A DNA stretch of 64,000 nucleotides from an uncultured Methanosarcinales archaeon (GTDB taxonomy: Archaea; Nanobdellota; Nanobdellia; Woesearchaeales; JAGVZT01), in contig CAYQPU010000003.1 in assembly GCA_964419615.1 (NCBI GenBank), positions 2,707-66,706 of the forward strand. Reading direction: 5' to 3'. Within the stretch, counting starts at the first letter, position 1. Each line of letters starts with the position of its first letter. The notes below the pieces were generated by a model that made no database searches, was not told the DNA's origin, and saw only the letters and a list, made by a program, of their open reading frames with translations. Below are positions 6,928-59,957 of the stretch, in pieces. The position numbers were made by a program, and so were the translations under genes.

Positions 6928-9900
6928 TTGCAGCAAGTGCTGAGATAAAATCTTACTTTAAGAAAATTGAAGGAGATCTTAATAAATCTTATAAATTTGC
7001 AGAATTAGCAAGAAAAAAAGGATATGATCCCGAAGATAAAGTAGATATTCCTCTTGCAAGAAATATGCAGGAAAGAGTAGAGGGTTTAATTTCAATTGTT
7101 GCACCACAGCTTGTCGATTCTGGAATGATTGATAGGATTCATGAACTTGAAAAAAACTACAGTATCTTGGATTGGAGAGTTGCTTTGATTATAGCTGTGG
7201 AAGTTGCTCAAGAAAAATTTTGTAAATTTAAAACAAAAAAAGAAGCATTAGAAGTTGGGATAAGAACTGGATTTGCATACCACACATTAGGTATAGTTGC
7301 AGCCCCCTTAGAAGGATTTATTGAATTAGAAATTAAAAAAAGACAAGATGGAAAAGAGTACTTATCTCCAAAATATGCAGGTCCAATAAGAGGTGCAGGA
7401 GGAACGGCTGCTGCATTTTCAGTTATTTTAACAGATTATGTAAGAAAACAAATGGGTTATCATCCTTATGACCCTACTGACAAGGAAATTGAGAGGTATG
7501 CAGTTGAGATTAGAGATTATCATGAAAGAGTAACCAATTTACAATATTATCCTTCTGAGGATGAAATTAAGTTTTTGATTAAAAATATCCCTGTTGAGGT
7601 TAATGGTGATCCTACTGAAAAAATTGAAGTTTCTCAACATAAGGATCTCCCCAGAGTTGATACTCCCCGAGTTAGAGGAGGTGTGTGTTTGGTTGTTGCA
7701 GAAGGTTTAACACAAAAAGCACCTAAACTTTGGAAACGACTTGCAAGCTGGGGAGAAGAATTTGGTTTAGAATGGGGATTTTTGTCAGAGTTTATTGATT
7801 TACAAAAAAAGATTAAGGCAGGAGTTAAGGTAAAAAAAGAAGTTGATCAAAAGGTTACACCTAATTATACTTATATTAAGGACTTGGTTGCAGGAAGACC
7901 AGTATTAACACATCCACTAAGAAAAGGAGGATTCAGACTCAGATATGGACATAGTAGAGTAAATGGAATGTCAAGTGCTTCAATTCATCCAGCAACACAA
8001 TTTGTATTAGATAAGTACATTGCATCAGGAACACAATTAAAAGTTGAAAGACCTGGTAAAGCTGCTGCTGTTACAACATGTGATACTATTGAAGGTCCTA
8101 TTGTAAAATTAAAAGATTCAAGTGTTGTTCAAATTAATTCAGTAAAAGAAGCTAAGCAGTATTTGGGAGCTGTTTCTGAAATTATTTATTTGGGGGATAT
8201 TTTGTTTAATTATGGAGATTTTAGTGAAAATAATCATGTGCTGATTCCTCCTGGTTATTGTGAAGAATGGTGGGTTAAGGAACTTGAAAAAGATGTTGTT
8301 AACATGTTTGGTTCACTTGATTATGAAAAATTAAGTGAATTATTAGATGTTCAAACTAATAAAATAAATAATCTGATTAATTCAAATGAATTTGATGTTA
8401 ATGTATGTTTTCAAATTAGTAATCAGACAAAAGTACCTTTACATCCAAAATTTACTTTTTTTTGGAACTCAATTAATCCAGATGAATTAAGTCAATTAGT
8501 ATCTTGGTTTGAAAAAATTAGAATTATTAAAGATGGAGATAAAATTAAAAGATTTGTACTTCCATTAACAGATGAAAAATTAATTATTGAAAAATTAGGG
8601 GTTCCCTATAAAGTTGTTACAAATGAATTTGTGATTTTAAGTGCAGAGTTGGGTATTACTTTTATGAATATTTTAAATCTTGAAAAATTAACTCTTTTGG
8701 AATGTAAAAACATAATTAAGACTAATAAAAATAAAGATACTTTAGAAATAATTAATATGATTTCTCCTGTAATTATTCGGGATAAAGGAGGCACATTTAT
8801 TGGTGCAAGGATGGGAAGACCTGAAAAAGCTAAGATGAGAACTTTAAGAGGATCTCCCCATGTTTTGTTTCCTGTTGGAGATGAAGGAGGTAGGTTAAGG
8901 TCAATTTTGGCAGCTAGAGATGTTGGACAAATAACTGCAGATTTTCCAATTTATTATTGTGATAGTTGTGATAAGGAATCAGTTTTTAGCGTATGTGATA
9001 TTTGTGATAAAAAAATAAATAAAAAGTTTTATTGTAAAGAATGTGGAGTTGTAGATAATGAAGAATGTCAACATGGTCCAACTTATACTTATTCAAAAAG
9101 AAGCATAGATATCAATAACCTTTTATCATCATCTTTAAAAAAAATTAAATTTAGGGCAACACCTGATCTTATTAAGGGAGTAAGGGGAACTTCAAACAAA
9201 GATCATATTCCTGAACATATAATTAAGGGGATATTAAGAGCAAAACATGATATCTTTGTTAACAAAGATGGAACAACAAGATATGATATGTCTGAACTGG
9301 CCATTTCCCATTTTAAACCAAAAGAGATAGGTACAAATGTTGAAACACTCATTAAATTAGGATATAAAAAAGATATAACTGGAAAACCTTTGGAAAATGA
9401 AGATCAATTACTTGAGATTAAGCCTCAAGATATAATTCTTCCTGGAAATAGAAATAATCCTGATGAAGCAGCTGATGTTGTTTTGTTTAGAACTGCAAAT
9501 TTTGTTGATGAATTATTAAGAAAGTTTTATGGTCAAAAATCTTTTTACAAACTAAAGCAACCTACTGATATTGTAGGACATTTAGTCATTGGATTAGCCC
9601 CACACATATCCGCAGGTATGGTGGGAAGAATTATAGGTTTTTCAAAGATTCAAGGCTGTTTTGCGCATCCCCTTTGGCATGCAGCTTTGAGAAGAGATTG
9701 TGATGGAGATGAATGTTGTGTTATATTATTAATGGATGCATTACTTAATTTTTCAAGACAATTTCTTCCAGATAAAAGGGGTGGAAGAACAATGGATGCT
9801 CCTTTGGTATTAAGTTCAAAATTAATACCTTCAGAAGTAGATGATATGGTTCATGGAATAGATGTTGTATGGAGTTATCCTTTGGAGTTTTATGAGGCTT

Positions 9901-18006: not shown

Positions 18007-18201
18007 ATGAAGGTATATATTGAATATAATGATGAAGAAAAAGAAGTTGATTTTCAGGGTACTGCAAAGGATCTTTTAAAGCAACTAAATATAAATCCAA
18101 TTACTGTAGTTCTTGTGAAAAACAATAAATTAGTTTCAGAGAAAACAACTTTTAATAATAAAGATAGCTTAAGAATACTTTCAGTTGTCTCTGGAGGTTA
18201 A
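18007..18201 (+). CDS. samp: Ubiquitin-like small archaeal modifier / ThiS-MoaD beta-grasp protein ending in Gly-Gly
   Basis: 64 aa; C-terminal ...LSVVSGG stop; size and diglycine terminus typical of SAMP/Urm1/ThiS sulfur carriers. Confidence 0.55.
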   Translation: MKVYIEYNDEEKEVDFQGTAKDLLKQLNINPITVVLVKNNKLVSEKTTFNNKDSLRILSVVSGG

Positions 18202-18873
18202 AGTAATTCCGTCAATAATCTTATTTCCTTTTTTGTAATCAATATTATCCTTAATTTTATTGTGTGTATTATTTACTACATTTTTTGATTCCAAGGTATT
18301 CATACCAAGCATCACAGCCACACTTTTAATATCATTTTCTGATCTCATCTCCCATTTATTATATGCAAAAGATGCTAGCAATAAGTCTACATTGTATTTT
18401 CTACAATATTTAACATTTTGATTAATCCTTCCTATTCTTTCTTTGGATTTATTGTTAAGAATATCTGAGAAAGAAAAACCAATCATTATTTTATTCTTAT
18501 TGGCAAGCTTGCATAAAACTTGATTAAGACCTGCTCTTTTATAATGGACTTTGTCAGATCTTTTATCAGACTCCAAATTATATATAATATCTGGTTTGTA
18601 TTTTTCAAAAGCTTCCCTGTTTTGGGTACTAGATTTCACAATTACTAAATCTGCTAGTTTTCTAGCTTTTGATGCTTGTTTTGGCTTTACCAACAGTCCC
18701 AAATAAATTTGCATGTCACTTTTTTTATTTAATTCCATGATTCTTTGCTGAATCTTGCTTATATTATTAGGTTGATAATCATAAACAAAGCAAATACCTT
18801 TGATTTCTAGAGCAGAGCATGTACTAAGAAAATCTTTTTCATTATTATTTGGAAATACAATATCTACGTACAT
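18181..18873 (-). CDS. rnp3: RNase P protein component 3 (Rpp30/Rnp3, TIM-barrel)
   Basis: 230 aa; MYVDI start, IMIGFSFSDIL and KYNVDLLLASFAYNKWEMRS blocks parallel Pyrococcus Rpp30. Confidence 0.6.
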   Translation of the reverse strand: MYVDIVFPNNNEKDFLSTCSALEIKGICFVYDYQPNNISKIQQRIMELNKKSDMQIYLGLLVKPKQASKARKLADLVIVKSSTQNREAFEKYKPDIIYNLESDKRSDKVHYKRAGLNQVLCKLANKNKIMIGFSFSDILNNKSKERIGRINQNVKYCRKYNVDLLLASFAYNKWEMRSENDIKSVAVMLGMNTLESKNVVNNTHNKIKDNIDYKKGNKIIDGITLTSRDN

Positions 18874-18887
18874 ATTTAATTCTAATC

Positions 18888-19778
18888 TTATTTTTTATTT
18901 AAAATTGTTGGTTTAATTTGATTAACTAATACACAACAGCTACATATCTCTCCTGTACTTGGTTCTCCACACTCCTTACAATGTGTTAGTTTTGTTTTGA
19001 CATTATGAATTGCTGATAAATCAAGTTTCAAGTAATTATTAATAAGATTAATTTTAGCTCCCTGATTTATTAATTCATAATTATTCAAAATATCTCTAAC
19101 CTTACTCCTAATAGAGCTTGATGCATATGGACATTCAATATGCCTAATATTAAATTCTTTAATAAAACTGTAGATTTTAACTTCTTTTTCAGAAATAAAA
19201 TAAAGTGGTTTTACTCTTGGAACAAATTTTTCATCTTGTATTACTCCAGATACAGGACCTAATCTAACAAGTGAGTTCATATTTGTTTTTAGCAGATTCA
19301 TTAAGACATTTTGAGCTTCATCATCAAGGTTATGTCCAGTAACAAGTTTATCATATTCTCTTGCATATTTATTAATCATGTATCTTCTGAATGTACCACA
19401 AACAGTACATAATCTTTTTTTATCCACTTGGTCTAAATCAAAACCAAATTCTTCTTTGAATGAAATTACCTTAAGTTTAATTTTATGTTTTTGGCAGAAT
19501 TCTTTTAAGTCTTCTAATGTATATTTTCTGTATCCTTTGATACCTTCATCAATAGCTAGTGCTTCAACATTTTCAAACACTTTGCTAACTAAATAAAGCG
19601 CAACTGTTGAGTCTTTACCTCCACTACATGCAACAGCAATTTTGTCTGAAGATTTTATTAGATTATATTTATTGATGGTCTCATAGAACCTTTTTTCAAA
19701 AAACTCAATAAAGTGATCTGTACAATAAGCCTTGTCTGTTTCATAAATTGAATCCTTTTTACAACAACTGCATTTCAT
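18888..19778 (-). CDS. ncsA: tRNA 2-thiolation ATPase NcsA/Ncs6 (PP-loop, TtcA family) with N- and C-terminal Zn fingers
   Basis: PP-loop SGGKDS; CCKK...C..H N-terminal and CKECGEPSTGEICSCC C-terminal Cys clusters. Confidence 0.75.
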   Translation of the reverse strand: MKCSCCKKDSIYETDKAYCTDHFIEFFEKRFYETINKYNLIKSSDKIAVACSGGKDSTVALYLVSKVFENVEALAIDEGIKGYRKYTLEDLKEFCQKHKIKLKVISFKEEFGFDLDQVDKKRLCTVCGTFRRYMINKYAREYDKLVTGHNLDDEAQNVLMNLLKTNMNSLVRLGPVSGVIQDEKFVPRVKPLYFISEKEVKIYSFIKEFNIRHIECPYASSSIRSKVRDILNNYELINQGAKINLINNYLKLDLSAIHNVKTKLTHCKECGEPSTGEICSCCVLVNQIKPTILNKK

Positions 19779-19810
19779 GTTTTACCTTTTGTTTCACTAA
19801 ATAGATTTTA

Positions 19811-20737
19811 TTATGTGGGATTTATAAAAACCAAATCTTTTTTAATTATTCTAGTTAATGGTTTGTTATTATTATATATTACTGCTCCTTTTGGAGTTAT
19901 TTTAATTATGTTACCTTCAACAAGTTTTTGTAATACAACATTTCCCTGTTTAGTATTTATAAATTGAGAGTTAGGAGTATCTGCATGGTAATAAACTGTT
20001 TTGTATTTTAATAGAGTTTCATTTTCATAATGACCATTAAATGAAAAGGAAACACTATCTCCTACTGTTCTATGTGGAGATTTATCTTTATACAAAATTA
20101 ATAAAGGCATTTTTAAGATTTTATTATATTGTGAATGTAATTCTGGAAATCTTTTTTCAACAAATAAGAGTACTCTTTGTGCATAATCAATAGATTCTTG
20201 ACAATTATAATTACACACATAGTGCCTTATTATTGATAAGTTTGAACCACCTCTATTGTAAAAATTATTTATTCTGTAATCAATTTCATTTACTTTATCA
20301 ATTTGAAAAAAATCAGTATATGACTTGTTTATCCAAGATGCCCTTGTACAGCAAATTGGATAGGATAAGCCTTCTCCAACCTCATCACAGTATTCTTTTG
20401 GAGATTTATAATATTTGTCAAATTGTTTTAGATTTTCTCCTCTTTGTCCAATAAATACATTGTACTTATAGTCTACATTGTGTTTTTTTATCCAATGATA
20501 ACCTTTTGTTGTTAATGAACAGAATTTTTTTGTAGGATCTAATGTATGTAACATATCTAATAGTTTTTTTGCCAGATAAGGATCTGAAGTTTCCAATGCT
20601 GCAATATTTTTCACACCAGATATTAATCCAATAAATTCTGAAAGATACCCTGATAATAAAGGTCTTGAATTATACCTAAGTTGAAAAAACAAATCTTTTA
20701 TATTACCATGAATGCTTACTTGTTTGTTTGAATGCAT
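19811..20737 (-). CDS. Hypothetical protein (Cys-containing, 308 aa)
   Basis: No recognisable motifs. Confidence 0.3.
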   Translation of the reverse strand: MHSNKQVSIHGNIKDLFFQLRYNSRPLLSGYLSEFIGLISGVKNIAALETSDPYLAKKLLDMLHTLDPTKKFCSLTTKGYHWIKKHNVDYKYNVFIGQRGENLKQFDKYYKSPKEYCDEVGEGLSYPICCTRASWINKSYTDFFQIDKVNEIDYRINNFYNRGGSNLSIIRHYVCNYNCQESIDYAQRVLLFVEKRFPELHSQYNKILKMPLLILYKDKSPHRTVGDSVSFSFNGHYENETLLKYKTVYYHADTPNSQFINTKQGNVVLQKLVEGNIIKITPKGAVIYNNNKPLTRIIKKDLVFINPT

Positions 20738-50350: not shown

Positions 50351-51820
50351 TCAGTTTAAAATGTGAAGAGCAAACCTATACTTTATCGGTTTAACAGAAA
50401 CAGTTTCTTCTTGTGAATCATAATATTGAATCTCTTGCTTGCTTTCTACTTCATATGCGTAGTAATTATTCTCATATTCGATTAAGTTCCAGTCATCGGG
50501 TAAATTAGATATAATACATGAATACATATTAGGTGGGCCACCAGGAGTTCCAACCCAGAATTTACACAGATTTACTTCCTGTAAAAATAATTCTTTGTCT
50601 TCCCATATTTTACCATACTCCTCAAAGTCGTATTCCAGCTCAACTTTAAAACTTGGATATATTGAATAAACACCTTTTGCATTATCTGGAATATCTCCCG
50701 TTGTCTTGGGACCACTTTGTCCAACAAGTTTGGAATTGTCACAAACATTTAGTGAGCAGTAGGTAGGATCACTATAGAAACTAAAAAACATGCTTGCTGG
50801 AGTAAAGCAAGATCTGCCTACTGGCAGGCCAGTATAGCTATCTACCCAACCAATTGAACTAGCAAACACTTGCTCACCAGAATCGTCAGGTATAAACTCT
50901 GTAAAACATCTGTCCATCCAAAAAGGATCTGGATTATTAACTTCTCCTTTTCCAATATATACTGCAGTATGACCCTCTTCTTCTCCTTTTTCTCCGGGAT
51001 AGGTTACTGAAACAAAACTTCCAGGTTCTAATCTATTTTTTTCTATCTCTTTTGTTAAGTCATACACATTTCCATGCTCACAAAATCTTTTTGCAGGTCC
51101 GCTGATTTTAGGCTGAGGTGTATTTATTTGTGTTAGTGCAAAGTTATTAAAATCAACAGAATTAAGACCTTTTTCACAATAAACCATATCTGGATCCCCT
51201 CTCTCAACGTAAGGACAATTTCTTTCTACAGCTCTGATTGCAGCTTTGGTTACTTCTTCACAGATATTTTCATCAGGAGTTTCAATTGAGGTTGTGTACT
51301 CGATTTCATTACCCGCAACGAAAAGATATTCTTTATCATCTTCATCCACTTCTTCTTTGAGGATAATTATGTTTGTCATGTTTTTTGGTTTTGCAATAAA
51401 CCATTTTTCATCAAATTCTAGATTATACTCTAATTCTAACTCTTCTTGAAAACTTAAGATATATGGAATTAGATTATTGTTAAAAACAAATTCAAATTCA
51501 GCAACAGGATCTGGTTTGCACTCTTTTCCAAGAAGATTCCATAGATTATAATCTTTAAATTTTCCACATTCGGATTCAGCTGCAATCCCTCCCATCTCTG
51601 CAAGATCTTGGACTGTTTGCTCAGCTGCATATTTACCTGCAAGTTCTGTGTACAAAATGAAACCTTCTCCTTTACTATAAGCTTCAAACAATTCTAATTG
51701 TTCATCTCCTATCTCTTTTTCAATAAGATCCTTTGAAATTAGAATCTGGTAGCTCCACACAAGTGCAGCAATAGCTATAATAATAATCAAGGCTGGAAAT
51801 GCTGATCCTTTTTTATTCAT
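50351..51820 (-). CDS. Large secreted/pilin-like protein with class III (type IV pilin-like) signal peptide
   Basis: MNKKG-SAFPALIIIIAIAALV leader; 489 aa, Cys-containing extracellular domain. Confidence 0.4.
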   Translation of the reverse strand: MNKKGSAFPALIIIIAIAALVWSYQILISKDLIEKEIGDEQLELFEAYSKGEGFILYTELAGKYAAEQTVQDLAEMGGIAAESECGKFKDYNLWNLLGKECKPDPVAEFEFVFNNNLIPYILSFQEELELEYNLEFDEKWFIAKPKNMTNIIILKEEVDEDDKEYLFVAGNEIEYTTSIETPDENICEEVTKAAIRAVERNCPYVERGDPDMVYCEKGLNSVDFNNFALTQINTPQPKISGPAKRFCEHGNVYDLTKEIEKNRLEPGSFVSVTYPGEKGEEEGHTAVYIGKGEVNNPDPFWMDRCFTEFIPDDSGEQVFASSIGWVDSYTGLPVGRSCFTPASMFFSFYSDPTYCSLNVCDNSKLVGQSGPKTTGDIPDNAKGVYSIYPSFKVELEYDFEEYGKIWEDKELFLQEVNLCKFWVGTPGGPPNMYSCIISNLPDDWNLIEYENNYYAYEVESKQEIQYYDSQEETVSVKPIKYRFALHILN

Positions 51821-52351
51821 CTAAGCATCCCCCTCTTTTTGTAGAAGAATCACATCAACTTTGTCAGGTGAATCTGAGTAAAACAAAGGAATACTGATCT
51901 TCCCAAAATTTGCATTCATTAAATCTTCAGAACTTATTGGACTACTAGAACATGATTCTGATCTTATTATTTTAAGTATGCTTTTCTTATTGATAATTGT
52001 TAATTGAGAACATTTGTTAGCTCCAAGTTCATCATAATATCCAAAAGTATCTTTGGTTACTATTTCTAGTTCATCATAATTATCATTTTCTACTGAATCT
52101 GCAATAAGCTTGGCAATCAAAACTATTTCACCTTCAATCTCCACTTCTGTTCGAAGGAAGTTTAACAAATTTTGATTCTGTTTTATTGAACTATCAAAAT
52201 CACTAACTAGCTCATATTCTCTAGAATATTGATTACCACAACCTCTAAAATGCATTGAAAAAATTATAAAAAATAAAAGGAAAATGATTACATAAATACC
52301 TAAAGCTATGAAATCAGCAAGATAGTCAGTGTAAAATCCTCTTTTGTTCAT
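51821..52351 (-). CDS. Pilin-like protein with class III-type signal
   Basis: MNKRG-FYTDYLADFIALGIYVIIFLLFFII. Confidence 0.35.
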   Translation of the reverse strand: MNKRGFYTDYLADFIALGIYVIIFLLFFIIFSMHFRGCGNQYSREYELVSDFDSSIKQNQNLLNFLRTEVEIEGEIVLIAKLIADSVENDNYDELEIVTKDTFGYYDELGANKCSQLTIINKKSILKIIRSESCSSSPISSEDLMNANFGKISIPLFYSDSPDKVDVILLQKEGDA

Positions 52352-52352
52352 T

Positions 52353-52865
52353 TTAACTGCTTGGCATTAATAATTTAATATGAATTATTCCAGGTTCCAT
52401 TACATCATCGTTTTTTATTAATATGTATCTTAATTCTTCAAATTTAATTACTGAACCAGAACCACTGAATCCTAGTCTTGGTTCTAGTAGTTCATAACCT
52501 TCTTTGTTGTAAAAAATCTGATGTTCAGAACTGTCCTCTTTTTTTATTAAAGTGATCTGGGCTGCTGCAAAATCATTGGTCTCTCCAAAATAAGCGCAGT
52601 CATCCGCAACTTTGCTTGTGAACTTAAATGGATCAATAACCCCTGGTAATGGTCTGTCCAGTTCCAAGTCATAATATGAAAAACAATTATTTGAAAACAA
52701 AAAATTATTGATTAGTATACTAGATTGTGCTTCTTGGATGTTAATGTTTACCATTAGCATGCTTCGTACAAGAAACACAATGCTAAGAGCAACAAACAGT
52801 GTAAAAATATATCTAAATATCCTCCATACTTGGTTAAATGTTAAAGTACCAGATTCATCATCCAT
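52353..52865 (-). CDS. Membrane-anchored hypothetical protein in pilin-like cluster
   Basis: N-terminal TM after acidic start; co-oriented, tightly packed. Confidence 0.3.
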   Translation of the reverse strand: MDDESGTLTFNQVWRIFRYIFTLFVALSIVFLVRSMLMVNINIQEAQSSILINNFLFSNNCFSYYDLELDRPLPGVIDPFKFTSKVADDCAYFGETNDFAAAQITLIKKEDSSEHQIFYNKEGYELLEPRLGFSGSGSVIKFEELRYILIKNDDVMEPGIIHIKLLMPSS

Positions 52866-53265
52866 TTATTTCTAGTGCCTCTTCTTTTGCAAAAAACAAT
52901 TGATCATTATTCTCGGGACCATATTCTATGTCATTGTCAATTTCTATAGCATACCAGTATCTATTTGGAACAGTAGCCTCTTCACCAAGATCCCATACTC
53001 TTACTGTATTCTCACTGATTCCAATAGTAAAATTGGTTATGTTTTCTGGGTATTCATAATTAAGCAGATGCGGACTTGCAATAACTGTTTCAATCATAAG
53101 CGAGATATCTCTAGTAAGGTAATTTTTCTCAAATATTGTGTTATCTTTAACACTCCTCACAAATCCAAAAATCGCCATAAAAAAGAAAAATGCAACAGCA
53201 ACATCAAGGATTAGCATAAAGGTCTCATTAGTCATACCTTTTTTATTCAACCTCTTTTTTCTCAT
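52858..53265 (-). CDS. Pilin-like protein with class III-type signal
   Basis: MRKKRLNKKG-MTNETFMLILDVAVAFFFFMAIFGFV. Confidence 0.35.
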   Translation of the reverse strand: MRKKRLNKKGMTNETFMLILDVAVAFFFFMAIFGFVRSVKDNTIFEKNYLTRDISLMIETVIASPHLLNYEYPENITNFTIGISENTVRVWDLGEEATVPNRYWYAIEIDNDIEYGPENNDQLFFAKEEALEING

Positions 53266-53325
53266 TAGAAAGAATCTAGAAACAGTTATTTATAATATTT
53301 TTGAAAAAGCACTTAATTTAACTAG

Positions 53326-54003
53326 TTATTCTTCAATAGAACGAGACTCTGCGTCTTTTTCTTTTCCAAGGTAGACAAAAATTTTACCACTTGTATCTTT
53401 TGTTCTTTGAATATAGATGTTCTGAGTTTCCCAGTTTTGTTCATCAATTCCTTTTCCACCGTTTATTTGTAGGCAATGTGCATTTTTTCCAGTAGCAGGA
53501 TCAATTTTACTCATTTCCTCTCCTTCATATGGATTTAAAACACCTGGTTTTCCCCCAATAAAATAATCTACTCCTTTATATGGTACACACAACTTTTCTT
53601 CACACATCTTCTCATCTTCATTTTCACATAAACATAAGCAAGCCTTTTTTCTGCAAACACCCGGTGGTTCAATAAATTCATCACCTTTGATGCAATCATT
53701 TACTTCTTTATCTTTATTAAATCCAATAAGCATATATTTTGTTCCAATTGTGTAAACAATAGTTCTCTCTGAATGATCTGACTCTAATAAAATTTCAATG
53801 TCTTGGCTAAGTCTACTAAAACTATCTGGTGATGCAAGTGCATAAACCTCTTGGACTATTCCTGGGTTTATTCTGGGAAGTAATGTATCCACACTACGTT
53901 GATAAATCACAACTAGACCCAAAATAACAATGATAACCATAACTAAACCAATAAGTGCTCGAATAATACTGTTCCCTTTTTTATTCAGTTTTTCCAACAA
54001 CAA
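53326..54003 (-). CDS. Pilin-like secreted protein with CLCLC cysteine motif
   Basis: MLLEKLNKKG-NSIIRALIGLVMVIIVILGLVV leader; CRKKACLCLCENEDEKMCEEKLC. Confidence 0.4.
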   Translation of the reverse strand: MLLEKLNKKGNSIIRALIGLVMVIIVILGLVVIYQRSVDTLLPRINPGIVQEVYALASPDSFSRLSQDIEILLESDHSERTIVYTIGTKYMLIGFNKDKEVNDCIKGDEFIEPPGVCRKKACLCLCENEDEKMCEEKLCVPYKGVDYFIGGKPGVLNPYEGEEMSKIDPATGKNAHCLQINGGKGIDEQNWETQNIYIQRTKDTSGKIFVYLGKEKDAESRSIEE

Positions 54004-54245
54004 AATTCATCAGCTCCACAACCACCAAATGCAGGTACACAGTTTAGATTATCCCTTGAATCCCCAAGAGCATAGCATTGACCAGTTCCATCTCCCATTG
54101 CTGGACAATCAGTTAGTCCATGAATATCATCACTTGTTTTTCCAAACCAATTAGTAAATACTCCAATTATAACAAACAAAACCACAATGCATATTGCGGC
54201 AATTATTATTGTGTTTAATGACAGTTCCATTCCTTTTTTTTTCAT
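53985..54245 (-). CDS. Small pilin-like protein (Cys-rich C-terminus)
   Basis: Likely start MKKKG-MELSLNTIIIAAICIVVLFVIIG; C-terminal CYALGDSRDNLNCVPAFGGCGADEFCC. Confidence 0.4.
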   Translation of the reverse strand: MKKKGMELSLNTIIIAAICIVVLFVIIGVFTNWFGKTSDDIHGLTDCPAMGDGTGQCYALGDSRDNLNCVPAFGGCGADEFCCWKN

Positions 54246-54255
54246 AGTATCTCCT

Positions 54256-55242
54256 TTATTCAATATTAATAAAAATAACGTTTCCATCAGCTGTCTCTGG
54301 TGAGCCTTTCATTTTAATGCTAGCAGGTTGTTGGGCTACCCTTAGGCCTTTGGGAATTTCATTCCAATTTTTTCCAACAGCACATCTACCCATCAGAACA
54401 GTGCCAATTGGTTTACTATCTGCTGGATTACCTGTGTGAATCTCATAATCTAAAGATTCACCTCTCTGTAGTCTATTTTTTTCGGTTGTGAAAATATCAT
54501 GACTATAGATTAATTTAACATCAAATTCTTGGCAAAGACTTACCTTTTGACAATCCTTCTTACCAATTCCACCACAAAGACATAAGCAGTTTTTGCCAGC
54601 ACACTCAGGTGGCATTAACACTTTTGAAGATCCAAAACCACACAGTAATCTTTTTGTATCCTCTCCGTTAAATGCAACGATCATGTGATCTTTGTGTAGC
54701 CAGAAATGTGGGAATATTTTTTCTTTATCTCCAGCTATAAGAAGATTATAACCAATGTAATTATCAATAAGTCCAGTAAAATCAGTAAATGTAGTAAAAT
54801 CCATTCCTTGTATAAAAGTAACAAGCTTTTTATCATAATCAATCTCACCCATCCCATCTTCAGTGACTTTCAACGTGATTGTATGATCTCTATACGTAGG
54901 GAGTTCATATTCTAGCCTGTGAATACCTTGATTTTCTTTTTTACCTGAAAGATCAATAGGTTCTTTTATTCCAGAAGTATCATTATAATATAAGTCAAAA
55001 TCTAGTTTCTCATCATTTACCAGGACCCACTCAATAATTACATCTCTTCCAAAGCCTCGCTCAACTGTGAATTTTTGAATTGGACTATTTGTATCATCTG
55101 TAGGTAATCCAATGAGTTTCCTGAATATTGTGGGAATGTCATCTACTTCTCCTCGAATTGGGTATATAATCACTGCAATAATAATCAACATAACAACAAC
55201 TCCTATTGCAGCTTCAATTATGTTTCTAAGCGATAATCCCAT
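54256..55242 (-). CDS. Pilin-like secreted protein with CLCLC motif
   Basis: MG-LSLRNIIEAAIGVVVMLIIIAVI (N-terminus homologous to 53985 gene: LSLxxIIxAAI); CAGKNCLCLCGGIGKKDCQKVSLC. Confidence 0.4.
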   Translation of the reverse strand: MGLSLRNIIEAAIGVVVMLIIIAVIIYPIRGEVDDIPTIFRKLIGLPTDDTNSPIQKFTVERGFGRDVIIEWVLVNDEKLDFDLYYNDTSGIKEPIDLSGKKENQGIHRLEYELPTYRDHTITLKVTEDGMGEIDYDKKLVTFIQGMDFTTFTDFTGLIDNYIGYNLLIAGDKEKIFPHFWLHKDHMIVAFNGEDTKRLLCGFGSSKVLMPPECAGKNCLCLCGGIGKKDCQKVSLCQEFDVKLIYSHDIFTTEKNRLQRGESLDYEIHTGNPADSKPIGTVLMGRCAVGKNWNEIPKGLRVAQQPASIKMKGSPETADGNVIFINIE

Positions 55243-55425
55243 TTTATCTGAACCTCAAAAAGCTTGTTAGATCTTTCCATAAATCTTTTATTGAATCTCT
55301 CATAAAGTAGATTATTCCAATTAATACTAATAATAACAATAAGATTAATGCAATATTAATCAACTTAGACCATACTAACTGTCCTTTTTTCCTCATTTTG
55401 TATATTTTTGATTAATTAGTTTAAA

Positions 55426-56322
55426 TTATTTTTGCATAACTTGTAGTGGTGTAGATTTTGCTTCCAATCTTGTACATCCTAATGAATTTAGATTATCATA
55501 ATCTCCAAGATAGACATATGCATTGTATTCAGCACTTTTATCAGCGCCTATCATATAACCAGATCCAGCGCCCGCCCCTAATCCTAATATGACAAATGTT
55601 GCACCACAAACTGGAGCAGTAAGGCCACAAGTAACTAATCCTACAACAGTTCCAGCTGCAATACCTGCCCCTCCCATTTTTAGAGTCTCAACTTTTTTTG
55701 TTTGGTAGACCCATTTCCAGGCACCAGGATATGCATCTTTGTCCATAAAGAAAATAACAGCTAAAGGATCTGATGTGGTAAAGCGGTCATATGATTCAAA
55801 TTCAGAATTAAGGTAGTGGTCAGTCTCAAAGCTTTCTATATCAGTTCCATAAAAATACTCCCAATATGTATCTTCTCTTGTTGGAATTTTGGTTTCTCTC
55901 AAAAATAACATGAACTGGTTGATCTTAACATCCTCTTCAAAGGTTAACCTAGAACAAACTGCACAATAAGCACCATCCTTTGTTTCAAATAACTCCTTTT
56001 CACCTTCAAGATACATATCCCAACAATCGTACATCTTGTTGGCAATTATTCTCTTAACAACTTCTGGATCATCTTCATCATAATTGATGTATTCTGTTGA
56101 GCATTCTATTTGAGCAGCATTACCATATGGATCAAACAAACCCTCAATTTCTTCTTTTAGCTTGTTTGAACTCATCTGAATGCTTGATTTACATATTTCC
56201 TTGTTGGCAATTTCATTACCTGAAACAATAGTGTCCTTAAAGAAAAACATAATCACAACAGTTACAATTAGTGCAAATATTATCCAGCCAAGAGTACTCA
56301 TTGACATGGCTCTTTTTGACAT
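55426..56322 (-). CDS. Pilin-like secreted protein
   Basis: MSKRA-MSMSTLGWIIFALIVTVVIMFFF leader; C-terminal Gly-rich TM. Confidence 0.35.
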   Translation of the reverse strand: MSKRAMSMSTLGWIIFALIVTVVIMFFFKDTIVSGNEIANKEICKSSIQMSSNKLKEEIEGLFDPYGNAAQIECSTEYINYDEDDPEVVKRIIANKMYDCWDMYLEGEKELFETKDGAYCAVCSRLTFEEDVKINQFMLFLRETKIPTREDTYWEYFYGTDIESFETDHYLNSEFESYDRFTTSDPLAVIFFMDKDAYPGAWKWVYQTKKVETLKMGGAGIAAGTVVGLVTCGLTAPVCGATFVILGLGAGAGSGYMIGADKSAEYNAYVYLGDYDNLNSLGCTRLEAKSTPLQVMQK

Positions 56323-57189
56323 TTATGCCACCACCAAATATGTTCCAATAAACATAATGACTGCAATTCCCAGTCTAAACATCAAATTCTGTTCATTAAA
56401 AAACTTCCCACCAAGCAGAACTACAAACAAGGTTGATAAAGTTAATATTGGCGTTACAAGTGAAACAAAAGTCATTGAAACAGCTTTGATTGCTAAAAAC
56501 CAGGATACTACAGATAAGAATGAAATAAAAAATACAAGAAATTTTTCATCTTTAATGCATTTGATAACCTCTTTAAATCCGTGTTTGTAAGTATGATATA
56601 CGTTTAGATTAATAGTTACAAAAAACCAAATCAATGAACCATATGTGAATATATTCATTTCTCCTGTGAAAAATTTGTCAAAAACAGATCCAATACTGAA
56701 AATAAAAATTGCTATAATATAATAAAGACTATACTTATCCTTAAGCAGGTTTTTTAGAGGCTGAATAATGTTTGAAAAATGGTGATCTGCCTGAAGTACA
56801 TATGCTGAAATAAAAATAACTCCAATTCCAATCATTTGAGTTAAAGTTAGGGATTCTCCTAGAAATATAACTGCAATTAAAGCAACAAAAGCAGGCTTGA
56901 TATTTGACAAAGGTGCTATTAATGAAATCTCTCCGTGTCTAAAAGCTTTTGATGCAAGGAGTATACCAATTGCTGATATAAATGAGTTAAAATATATCAA
57001 GTACAATAATTTGAAATCAAAATTAAAATCTAAAAAAGGAATAATAAATATGCAGAACACTGAATTTAGTAATAGTCTTGTTGATTCAAAATTTAGTGCG
57101 TGTTCATGACATAAGGCCTTTTTTCTTAGTATAGTAAATAAAGTAGCAAAGATTACAGACATCAATGCATAAGCATACCATGGTATCAT
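56323..57189 (-). CDS. EamA/DMT-family transporter (10 TM)
   Basis: 288 aa; two internally repeated 5-TM halves typical of EamA. Confidence 0.5.
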   Translation of the reverse strand: MIPWYAYALMSVIFATLFTILRKKALCHEHALNFESTRLLLNSVFCIFIIPFLDFNFDFKLLYLIYFNSFISAIGILLASKAFRHGEISLIAPLSNIKPAFVALIAVIFLGESLTLTQMIGIGVIFISAYVLQADHHFSNIIQPLKNLLKDKYSLYYIIAIFIFSIGSVFDKFFTGEMNIFTYGSLIWFFVTINLNVYHTYKHGFKEVIKCIKDEKFLVFFISFLSVVSWFLAIKAVSMTFVSLVTPILTLSTLFVVLLGGKFFNEQNLMFRLGIAVIMFIGTYLVVA

Positions 57190-57190
57190 T

Positions 57191-57871
57191 TTAATTCATC
57201 ACAATTGTACATTTTTCAGATAAGTCATAATAAGGAACTATTTCAATCTCTTGATCATCATAAGTGCCGTGCATAAAAGTTGATTTCCAAATAACTGCTA
57301 ATGGTGCTGATGTGTCATAAACATCATCTAGCTTTGTGAACTCTTCCATTTCATCTGAGTCTGGATTTCTTGAGTACAGATGTTGAAAATAAGTTTTATC
57401 TTTTGTTGTTGGTTTATTCCTAACCATCCAAAGATCCAAACCTTGGATTGGACTAATATCTTCAAAATCAATGATGTTGCAAATTAAACAGTAGCTTCCA
57501 ACACCTGTAGTTACTAAAGGAGTACTTGGATAAGGTTGGTTTTCTCCTGCTCCAACAGTATACCAACATTGCACCACCTTGTTAGCCATTTTTCTTTTAA
57601 CAAGATTTTCATAATTATCAGCATCACTCCCTGTAAAATCTTCTTTACTAATTGTATCTCTAGCTGCAAGACAATCAAAATCCGGAATCTTTTCTTTTCC
57701 TATAAGTTTATCTTTTGTTGAGGTTGCAATACTAAACGAACATGCCTGATTCATGATGAAATCATCAGCATCGCTGGCCATTTGCTTATTTAGTGATACA
57801 AGTACAAATCCTCCAATCAAGGCTAATATAATAGAAGCCAAAACAGCCAAAGACATTGATCCTTTTTTCAT
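57191..57871 (-). CDS. Pilin-like secreted protein
   Basis: Likely start MKKG-SMSLAVLASIILALIGGFVLVSL (ORF-track start further upstream). Confidence 0.35.
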   Translation of the reverse strand: MKKGSMSLAVLASIILALIGGFVLVSLNKQMASDADDFIMNQACSFSIATSTKDKLIGKEKIPDFDCLAARDTISKEDFTGSDADNYENLVKRKMANKVVQCWYTVGAGENQPYPSTPLVTTGVGSYCLICNIIDFEDISPIQGLDLWMVRNKPTTKDKTYFQHLYSRNPDSDEMEEFTKLDDVYDTSAPLAVIWKSTFMHGTYDDQEIEIVPYYDLSEKCTIVMN

Positions 57872-58067
57872 TTTGGTATTATGGATGAATAATCTTATCC
57901 AAACCTCCTTTAAAAAATAAAAACAGTAATAACATACCCAAAAGAGATAATATAACAATGATAAGTGTCATGATTGATTGTTTATGACCTTCTCCTCTTT
58001 TATTCATAATATTAAACCATTTTTAAGGATATATAAGTTTTTCTAATAATACTAATACAGAATGGCT

Positions 58068-58790: not shown

Positions 58791-59957
58791 ATGAAAGTAC
58801 AAGCAGAAATTTTCAATGATCTCTATTTAGGATTCAGAAGAACTCCTAATTGGGAGAATGATCCAAGTCAATTATTTAATGATATTACTAGTCTCGTAGT
58901 TTTTGGGTTGTCAGAATGCATTTGGAGATGCTGTCATTGTGCAATTGATTATGATTTTTTTGAAAATGGAGAAGGTGCAACAGTTATGGATGAGGATGTA
59001 GCCTTATCTTTGGTTGAAATGGTACCAAAACTTCAACAAACCACAGCAGCTGGAACTGAATTTCCATTGCTAGATGAAAGCATTCGAACAAATGCAATTA
59101 GTAATAAACTAATTCCAAAAAAAATTAATAAAAAATTACATGGAATTGATTATGCAGAACAGTTGCTTGGTGATATGGTAGATCATGTGTGGAGAGACTG
59201 GGGGATTATTGGACAAATGCTTCCAAAAATCCGAGCTACAAAACATGAACGGTTTGTTCGAGTCCCGACAAATGGCTGGGTATTTCCATGGCTTTGGCAT
59301 GAAGGAATAGACATTTTTGATAGTTATTCAGATGATGATTTAAGACAATCTTTGTTATATCAGACTTTGGAGAAATATATTGGAGTTACTTTTGTAGTAT
59401 CCATAGGTCCATTTAATCATGTTGAATATATCAAAAGAAATGTTGGAAATAAAGAGCAGTTGACAATGGAGCGAAGAATAACAGAGTTTAATGAAGTCGC
59501 TGCTTTAATTAAAGAAGATTATCAAGATATTCAAGGTAAACCTGAGGGTGCAGTAACACTTGGATTAGGTTATATTTTTACCCATGCTCAACCAAGTGGT
59601 GTTAAGATTGATGATATTGATTGGGATCAAGTTGATAAAGAAATGGGTGAATTTTGGGGAATTGAAAATCCTCCTTCTAATCTATTAGATAGAAATGAGG
59701 TTGTGCAGTTCATAAGGTCATGGGGGTACGATTATGAACTTGAAAAGCAGGAAGTGTATTTTGAGGGAGAAGCAAAACAGTTTCCTTGGGCTTATAAAGG
59801 ACACAGAACCACAAAATTGGGACCTCATGAGTCTTATCTAGTTGAGTTATATGCAGTACCTGTTGCTGATGGAAAAACAGTTTGGTTTTTTGACAATACT
59901 GTTGACATGTATGGACCGTGTAAAGAGAATGCACATTTTGCATTAAGATTTAATTAA
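58791..59957 (+). CDS. Hypothetical protein
   Basis: 388 aa; CIWRCCHCAID Cys cluster; no family. Confidence 0.3.
   Translation: MKVQAEIFNDLYLGFRRTPNWENDPSQLFNDITSLVVFGLSECIWRCCHCAIDYDFFENGEGATVMDEDVALSLVEMVPKLQQTTAAGTEFPLLDESIRTNAISNKLIPKKINKKLHGIDYAEQLLGDMVDHVWRDWGIIGQMLPKIRATKHERFVRVPTNGWVFPWLWHEGIDIFDSYSDDDLRQSLLYQTLEKYIGVTFVVSIGPFNHVEYIKRNVGNKEQLTMERRITEFNEVAALIKEDYQDIQGKPEGAVTLGLGYIFTHAQPSGVKIDDIDWDQVDKEMGEFWGIENPPSNLLDRNEVVQFIRSWGYDYELEKQEVYFEGEAKQFPWAYKGHRTTKLGPHESYLVELYAVPVADGKTVWFFDNTVDMYGPCKENAHFALRFN

Follow-up and report, generated by a model that had tools for sequence, protein, structure and literature searches.

The stretch of DNA considered here, a window of 64,000 nucleotides from an uncultured archaeon (contig CAYQPU010000003.1, assembly GCA_964419615.1), carries on its minus strand an island of 12 co-oriented genes at positions 50351-58007. 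They are numbered g01-g12 in transcription order; one encodes an EamA transporter and the other eleven are the subject of this analysis. On balance, we favour the reading that the island supplies a DPANN archaeon of the Woesearchaeota type with the exported subunits of a surface apparatus that is type-IV-filament-like (TFF) and probably aimed at bacteria. This reading is carried by the conservation of an N-terminal motif, by synteny, by the pilin-like predicted shape of g04 and by the fusion of murein hydrolases to island proteins in relatives; cleavage, polymerisation or assembly, the roles of the individual subunits and the bacterial target are what we infer. Little is known of the physical means by which DPANN archaea engage their partners, and it is an open question if bacteria, in place of archaea, are the targets of some among them.

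The N-terminal motif separates the island from the rest of the window. A [K/R][K/R][G/A] sequence followed by a hydrophobic helix of transmembrane (TM) length opens nine of the eleven non-EamA proteins, which bears out the KKG-type starts reported in a preliminary description of this locus; the eight N-termini quoted there are all found in the sequence. A scan for [KR][GA] plus a hydrophobic segment flagged 8 of the 12 island open reading frames (ORFs), or 9 of 12 when the TTG start of g08 is used, and a single ORF among 71 outside the island, the latter spurious, as its KA lies inside a TM segment (Fisher p ~1e-7 for the clustering of the motif). Elsewhere in the window, seven proteins have a hydrophobic segment at the N-terminus, and all of them are without the motif. 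Sec-type signals or lipobox cysteines are found on other exported proteins of this organism, so that the motif is no genome-wide habit, and these N-termini show that lipobox, Sec and class-III-like signals serve different sets of proteins in this organism. Two adjacent paralogous lipoproteins of 317 and 295 aa, with lipobox cysteines, lie just upstream of the window, within 10 kb of its start (locus L033, 6383-8225).

A more ordinary explanation for such N-termini would be that the island encodes signal-anchor proteins of a lineage-specific envelope complex, with basic residues that follow the positive-inside rule and no prepilin cleavage. The TM length of the hydrophobic segments suits this explanation, which we nevertheless consider unlikely, given the absence of the motif from the other N-terminal TM proteins of the genome and the behaviour of the family of g04 (55426-56322, minus strand; 298 aa, MSKRA/MSMSTLGWII..., the slash here and below standing for the presumed cleavage site). 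In a full HMMER scan, this family numbers 2,255 representative clusters at E<=1e-3; the stricter limit of E<=1e-10 leaves 811. Among 133 full-length diverged representatives, 109 (82%) have [KR][GA] directly preceding the helix, whereas 53 would be expected if the N-terminal residues of each protein were shuffled. In 96 of these 109, the residue that follows G/A belongs to the set Q/L/M/E/V/A/I/D/F, which is the set permitted at the +1 position of archaeal class III substrates. Orthologues with 36-58% identity keep the motif, moreover, and so does a relative with 63% guanine-cytosine (GC) content; its origin as an artefact of AT bias was therefore rejected.

The predicted structure of g04 speaks against a plain signal anchor as well. 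An AlphaFold model (AF2, 80-sequence alignment; pLDDT 80, pTM 0.79) shows a long N-terminal helix, continuous over residues 3-52 (pLDDT 93-97), that runs ~25 residues beyond the membrane span and leads into an alpha/beta globular domain. In this model, the shape is pilin-like, the 'lollipop' of type IV pilins. The C-terminus holds a glycine-zipper hydrophobic hairpin (residues ~204-252), which is disordered in the AF2 model. A g04 profile searched against PDB sequences gave only weak, non-significant matches (E ~0.1), in which this hairpin region aligns with the hydrophobic heads that tripartite alpha-pore-forming toxins (SmhB, MakA, Nhe/Hbl) insert into membranes; the likeness was taken as compositional.

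Gene order places the island in the core genome. On the MAG795 contig (locus L004), all twelve genes occur in the same order between EF-1beta/Trm1 and RPA/RadA. The core order, namely a tiny gene, g02, g04, a second tiny gene, g06, g07 in one or several copies and g08 onward, is kept in L004, L005, L008, L010, L011, L013, L019, L024, L026 and L032, and more distant genomes retain it together, often, with the RPA neighbour. Islands can also be larger: two metagenome contigs, 223 and 309 kb long, have a succession of ~20 genes with the motif. A run of small unannotated genes on one strand might have suggested an integrated virus or other mobile element, an explanation that this synteny effectively refutes: the island occupies the same position between EF-1beta/Trm1 and RPA/RadA in genomes whose proteins share only 36-54% identity, its GC content matches that of its flanks, and no integrase, capsid gene, flanking repeat or PHROG match was found. 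A mobile origin was rejected on synteny and GC content, and by sequence comparison the island is vertically inherited core genome.

The EamA/DMT transporter g03 (56323-57189, minus strand; 288 aa, polytopic; PF00892 in two stretches, E 1e-22) is the exception to this conservation. Its orthologue in L004 is 60% identical, and within islands the gene occurs only in the window and in MAG795, the closest relative; it is absent from the islands of the more distant genomes, and in eight other lineages (L005, L008, L011, L013, L019, L024, L026 and L032) nothing separates g02 from g04. As it is missing from the islands of other lineages, EamA looks like a recent, lineage-specific insertion into the operon, a passenger outside the core system and not the island member for which it had initially been taken.

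Cysteines are a second shared property of the island proteins, making up 2.4% of their residues compared with 1.3% elsewhere in the window, while N-glycosylation sequons are nearly absent. Both g06 (54256-55242, minus strand; 328 aa, an 'MG' leader followed by LSLRNIIEAAI) and g08 (53326-54003, minus strand; 225 aa, TTG start, ...NKKG/NSIIRALIGL...) contain a CLCLC module of eight cysteines with identical spacing, every one of them invariant in orthologues (g06 against g08, BLASTP E 1e-4). Orthologues of g08 are found in L004, L005, L008 and L011, and at the loci of other genomes, 14 distinct island ORFs contain CLCLC as well. The N-terminal LSLxxIIxAAI block is common to g06 and g07 (47% identity over 36 aa). 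Both repeats, the cysteine cluster and the N-terminal block, had been assigned to two members each in the preliminary description, and rightly so. Invariant cysteines are even in number in g07 (six), g12 (twelve) and g06 and g08 (eight each), and amount to 7 of 8 in g04 and 4 of 6 in g02. The invariance and even number of these extracellular cysteines, like the raised Cys content, count in favour of the TFF reading.

The candidate major subunit is g07 (53985-54245, minus strand; 86 aa, MKKKG followed by MELSLNTIIIAAI..., with a CC at its end), whose start most likely lies at 54245 (MKKKG), in agreement with the starts of its orthologues. It has the most conserved N-terminus of the island and is present in one to five tandem copies in relatives. 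Its six cysteines follow a beta-defensin-like C..C..C..C..CC pattern, shared by homologues in L010, L012, L019, L024 and L026, and are invariant in 10 homologues. Single homologues gave weak matches to Defensin_beta (E 3e-4), Conotoxin (1e-3) and a bacteriocin model (5e-3), and the window's own g07 a weak one to an AtDEF-like model (E 0.034); these defensin- and conotoxin-type matches are likely driven by the cysteine pattern. A profile of g07 searched against PDB sequences retrieved generic TM helices only.

The evidence for a function comes from relatives. Orthologue mapping and domain scans found island-family orthologues in other genomes fused to M23, NlpC/P60, SLT, 3D, Amidase_3 and an endolysin-like domain, and most of the fusion proteins themselves start KKG or KKA. 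In homologues of g12, g09 and g04, the M23, NlpC/P60, SLT, 3D and Amidase_3 domains score above the Pfam gathering threshold. These fusions can be followed in g12 (50351-51820, minus strand; 489 aa, MNKKG/SAFPALIIII...), which consists of a conserved N-module (residues 1-177), an insert (~178-368) and a conserved C-module (369-489). In the L024 relative, no insert separates the N- and C-modules, after which come a Pro/Thr linker and an SLT lytic transglycosylase (6.5e-19, 68.1 bits); in the L010 orthologue, an NlpC/P60 domain lies between the modules (2e-10, 41 bits). The gene is split in L008, with one product joining the N-module to Peptidase_M23 (1.5e-28, 99.3 bits) and another an endolysin-like domain (PHROG 181, 5e-10) to the C-module. 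An M23 domain precedes the C-module in L011 (7e-17, 61.8 bits), and the modules occur alone in L019. This comparison of sequences predicts that g12 is a cargo-carrying subunit with a variable slot. Members of other island families carry such domains too: the g09 orthologue of L010 (617 aa) carries a 3D domain (2.9e-13, 50.2 bits), that of L011 (399 aa) an SLT domain (22.6 bits against a cut-off of 21.3), and the g04-family member P0024, inside a typical island, an Amidase_3 domain (2.5e-29, 103 bits). An L010 protein with the same 8-Cys module as g08 combines TPR and SLT, the SLT score of 21.2 bits being just below the gathering cut-off.

Archaea are not known to make true murein, the substrate on which Amidase_3, SLT, M23 and NlpC/P60 act; for an archaeon without murein of its own, the likely target is therefore a bacterial wall. 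The preliminary description had proposed attachment pili or a cell-surface structure; the attachment pili stay plausible, but the murein hydrolases joined to island proteins in relatives show this idea to be too narrow. The enzymes might, alternatively, serve the archaeon's own murein- or pseudomurein-like wall, opening it locally for the apparatus in the way that specialised lytic transglycosylases serve the pili and secretion systems of bacteria. Dedicated SLT or M23 enzymes are common in the trans-envelope machines of bacteria, and the conserved, housekeeping-like position of the island would fit such a role. We regard it as very improbable all the same: neither the 64-kb window nor the 10 kb before it showed genes for murein synthesis, Amidase_3, SLT and NlpC/P60 act on true murein, and lineages freely exchange one type of enzyme for another or have none.

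Several observations weigh against the reading of the island as a TFF apparatus directed at bacteria. The window's own proteins have no hydrolase domain detectable with Pfam, NCBIfam or PHROG. In the slot that holds NlpC/P60 in L010, g12 has a lineage-specific insert of 190 residues with eight cysteines, and an NlpC/P60-like reading of this insert draws on its motif PGSFVSVTYPG..GHTAVYIGKG, which resembles the NlpC/P60 histidine motif, on its shared position in the protein and on a weak, non-significant BLASTP alignment of the putative nucleophile region, VFASSIGW, with GFDSSGFVWW of the L010 NlpC/P60 (E 0.22). A g12 profile had no match among PDB sequences, and the AF2 model of g12, built from a two-sequence alignment, was unusable (pLDDT 32); hydrolase activity in this genome is accordingly put forward as a hypothesis. 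No curated pilin or archaellin model of Pfam or NCBIfam matched the window proteins or more canonical-looking relatives, the sole trace of a pilin model being Flp1_like at E 0.067, far below the cut-off. The g04 model had no significant Foldseek match in PDB or BFVD, and none to known pilins.

The N-termini themselves also contribute to these objections. The strict FlaFind hexamer is [KRDE][GA][ALIFQMVED][ILMVTAS]x3. The preliminary description had named FlaFind prediction as a check, and this hexamer fits one of the eleven island proteins (g04 only) and 16 of 146 g04-family representatives. It rarely fits because two to eight polar residues often separate G/A from the hydrophobic core, a spacer after the presumed cleavage site that suggests why signal-peptide predictors may miss the island proteins. 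In this genome, g06 ('MG') and g10 ('ESG') have no basic residue before the helix, and the g04 orthologue of L005 has no G/A after KR. The g06 leader (55240-55246, minus strand) is reduced to MG, with an in-frame TGA four codons upstream of the ATG, while its orthologues start MNKKA, MKKG or MKKGQ; minus its initial methionine, g06 would resemble an already processed pilin. The basic motif of g10 is KKA or KKG in distant orthologues. The largely unmet FlaFind pattern, the polar spacer, the degenerate leaders of g06 and g10 and the lack of a peptidase in the scanned window and loci are what ordinary signal anchors would lead one to expect.

The last of these objections concerns the assembly machinery. 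Neither Pfam searches of the large ORFs nor a motif scan brought to light a TFF ATPase, a platform protein or an A24 peptidase in the 64-kb window. The 10 kb preceding the window had none of the three either, and none was found within 10 kb of the ten related islands that share the core order. Regular expressions for the type II secretion system (T2SS)-E signature and the A24 GxGD motif, run over the window and all loci, gave false matches inside Cdc48 only. The statement in the preliminary description that the window holds no assembly ATPase or platform gene is thereby confirmed, and the search of the flanks that it had proposed, for PilB/FlaI, PilC/FlaJ and PibD, came back empty both in the 10 kb upstream of the window and beside the related islands. 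Its class III (prepilin) reading has accordingly fared in two ways: motif conservation, the +1 residues, the g04 helix and the different signals on other secreted proteins of the genome support it, and the FlaFind hexamer, the lack of a pilin model and the lack of linked machinery do not.

The lack of linked machinery would also be expected of the main rival to a filament, a short, membrane-anchored and class III-cleaved complex that displays enzymes or binding domains without forming a pilus, in the manner of the Sulfolobus bindosome with its sugar-binding proteins. Class III signals on substrate-binding cargo are widespread across archaea, with genes usually located away from the TFF machinery; hydrolases are not mentioned among the cargo (bioRxiv 10.64898/2026.04.22.720090). 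The island, likewise, never adjoins an ATPase or platform gene, and many of its members are large, multi-domain and enzyme-carrying. The small helix-only tandem proteins (g07, g05 and g01), on the other hand, look like bulk filament subunits, and a bindosome would itself still need a TFF ATPase and a platform protein. We consider this arrangement a serious contender, though on present evidence a somewhat improbable one. The island resembles the bindosome in using class III N-termini to mount non-pilin domains, with genes remote from the assembly machinery. It differs in its cargo, where murein hydrolases and Cys-rich modules take the place of solute-binding proteins, and in its fixed multi-gene core, the bindosome genes being scattered.

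Under the TFF reading, the eleven proteins would insert into the membrane by their N-terminal hydrophobic helices, and a class III (PibD/EppA-type) peptidase encoded elsewhere would remove the basic leader after [K/R][G/A]. The helices would then pack into a filament, a pseudopilus or a surface complex, built by an ATPase and a platform protein also encoded elsewhere. Either the small, tandem-amplifiable g07 or the tiny g05 and g01 may be the bulk subunits, and the larger, disulfide-rich g02, g04, g06 and g08-g12 the minor or tip subunits. In this scheme, g12 would be the carrier with a variable slot, the slots of g12, g04, g08 and g09 holding murein hydrolases in relatives, and the assembled apparatus would probably attach to bacteria and open their cell wall locally. 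A bolder version can be entertained tentatively: the island may encode a conserved organelle of Woesearchaeales/Nanoarchaeota, a pilus or pseudopilus with interchangeable murein-hydrolase heads and a g04 hairpin able to insert into the target membrane, that is, a device for drilling through bacterial walls which would form the physical basis of DPANN parasitism or predation on bacteria and use class III export as a route for hydrolases.

Comparison with known systems places the island closest to several of them without identity to any. Archaeal type IV pilin loci, such as those for the Epd pili of Methanococcus and the DPANN islands whose pilins, next to FlaI/TadC, were noted as 'dark matter' that can escape recognition (Makarova et al. 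2019, PMC6393860), share with it the basic leader up to G/A, the hydrophobic helix that follows and the rows of divergent pilin-like genes, including very small helix-only subunits, that lie beyond family models. The island differs from them in having no adjacent ATPase or platform gene, a polar spacer after the presumed cleavage site, eleven undescribed families, small disulfide-knot heads and, in relatives, hydrolase fusions. Bacterial minor-pilin or tip complexes and pseudopilins (FimU-PilVWXE with PilY1; GspG-K of the T2SS) are alike in forming operons of pilin-like genes of graded size with a large terminal subunit, here g12, that bears a functional head. The island, in contrast, shows no sequence or detected fold relationship to them, has archaeal class III chemistry and no Phe/Glu5 signature, and the head of the island type, as seen in relatives, is a wall-degrading enzyme rather than an adhesin. 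The type IV pili of Saccharibacteria (PMC9894109, PMC11623550) belong likewise to an ultrasmall episymbiont that uses pilin filaments for host contact; they differ in being bacterial, with canonical PilA/B/C/D and no hydrolase-bearing pilins.

The enzymes have been described before in another setting. Peptidoglycan hydrolases are prominent in Nanoarchaeota, where Sec and Tat signal peptides are the only ones reported (Woldo/Danwoldo; Strock et al., PMC12352652), and GH23 enzymes are known from Woesearchaeota without a pilus context (Vigneron et al., PMC9723730); both sets were interpreted as acting against bacteria. They share with the island relatives the presence of M23, SLT/GH23, amidase and NlpC/P60 domains in murein-free archaea, and differ in being free enzymes, Sec/Tat-secreted or signal-less, whereas those of the island relatives are C-terminal or inserted domains of pilin-like proteins that belong to a conserved island. 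Neither of the two papers was found to mention pilins or class III signals, and a targeted literature search found no paper linking Woesearchaeota, pilins and murein hydrolases; within the literature searched, the link between a pilin-like island and murein hydrolases appears to be new. Earlier work listed the murein hydrolases of Woesearchaeota and Nanoarchaeota as isolated genes, of which approximately two thirds had no recognised signal peptide. The island gives them a context, a conserved and vertically inherited set of at least 11 pilin-like carrier proteins, and a concrete model becomes testable, that of class III export with subsequent display on the surface at a filament. Were the bolder version true, class III export would be a previously unrecognised delivery route for archaeal peptidoglycan hydrolases. 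Eleven uncharacterised protein families are named in the process, none with a Pfam entry and one comprising more than 2,000 sequence clusters.

The island lies in a chromosome segment with ~31% GC that is rich in information-processing genes; Pfam matches in the window include Cdc6, both PolD subunits, MCM, RadA, RPA, Cdc48, Trm1, EF-1beta and LeuRS. The closest named relative is a Candidatus Woesearchaeota metagenome-assembled genome (GCA_018263355.1), and identical copies of the island are present on JGI and ENA metagenome contigs. Spacing between the island genes is operon-like: at the extremes, neighbours overlap by 19 nt or lie 60 nt apart. The preliminary description had recognised that the genes are co-oriented and had counted nine of them; twelve are present, g01, g05 and g10 having been overlooked. 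All three are backed by JGI gene calls on identical contigs and by orthologues. The end of the island had been set at 57958, at an upstream TTG codon: g02 starts at the ATG at 57871 (MKKGSMSL), and g01 carries the end to 58007. Scans of all island proteins with Pfam, NCBIfam and PHROG gave no match except EamA, and word-index searches yielded one to three relatives for each protein.

Two of the overlooked genes encode very small proteins. The first gene of the island, g01 (57879-58007, minus strand), is called by JGI with the same 42 aa (MNKRG followed by EGHKQSIMTLIIVIL...), and counterparts of 38-45 aa stand at the same position in L004, L005, L008, L013, L019, L026 and L032. The second, g05 (55244-55396, minus strand; 50 aa, MRKKG followed by QLVWSKLINIAL...LRFR), is a candidate Flp/Epd-like filament subunit; its orthologues share 59% and 47% identity and likewise end in ...LRF, and counterparts occur in L008, L013, L014 and L019. 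Among the larger proteins, g02 (57191-57871, minus strand; 226 aa, MKKG/SMSLAVLASII...) is a paralogue of g04 (BLASTP E 1e-19) that lacks the C-terminal Gly-zipper; it has no Pfam or NCBIfam match, and its orthologues are 43% and 33% identical. Further along the island are g09 (52858-53265, minus strand; 135 aa, ...NKKG/MTNETFMLIL...) and the third overlooked gene, g10 (52353-52865, minus strand; 170 aa), which has an N-terminal TM helix and a degenerate basic motif (MDDESG/TLTF). The remaining protein, g11 (51821-52351, minus strand; 176 aa, MNKRG followed by FYTDYLADFIALG...), has no family match and is represented by orthologues in L004, L008 and L019.

Further genes of possible interest were seen in and around the related islands. 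Giant Cys-rich proteins are encoded directly upstream of larger islands at L010 62-4330, L019 1082-6391 and L024 874-4146; they measure 1422, 1769 and 1090 aa with 112, 87 and 41 cysteines, respectively, end in a C-terminal TM helix and a lysine-rich tail, and have no counterpart in the window. A motif-bearing island protein of 280 aa in L026 (3376-4218) has ...RGTHGCIGAD... at its end, which resembles the catalytic motif of L,D-transpeptidases (YkuD), with no Pfam match on record. At the end of the L019 island (18047-20275), a 742-aa protein with an HEMGH zincin motif and no Pfam match may be an effector of a different type. Directly downstream of the L026 island (7633-8719) lies a minimal nucleotidyltransferase/HEPN pair, of the MNT-HEPN family typical of DPANN (Makarova et al.).

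Two genes on the window itself deserve mention. A 388-aa ORF without a Pfam match lies between EF-1beta and Trm1 (58791-59957, plus strand); it is kept in MAG795 (382 aa) and absent from that position in L005 and L008. At 30558-31352 on the minus strand, a 264-aa protein with a Sec-type signal contains an SpvB/Tc-toxin-type domain (PF03534, E 1.2e-12), unusual in an archaeon with so small a genome; the protein could be a further factor in host interaction.

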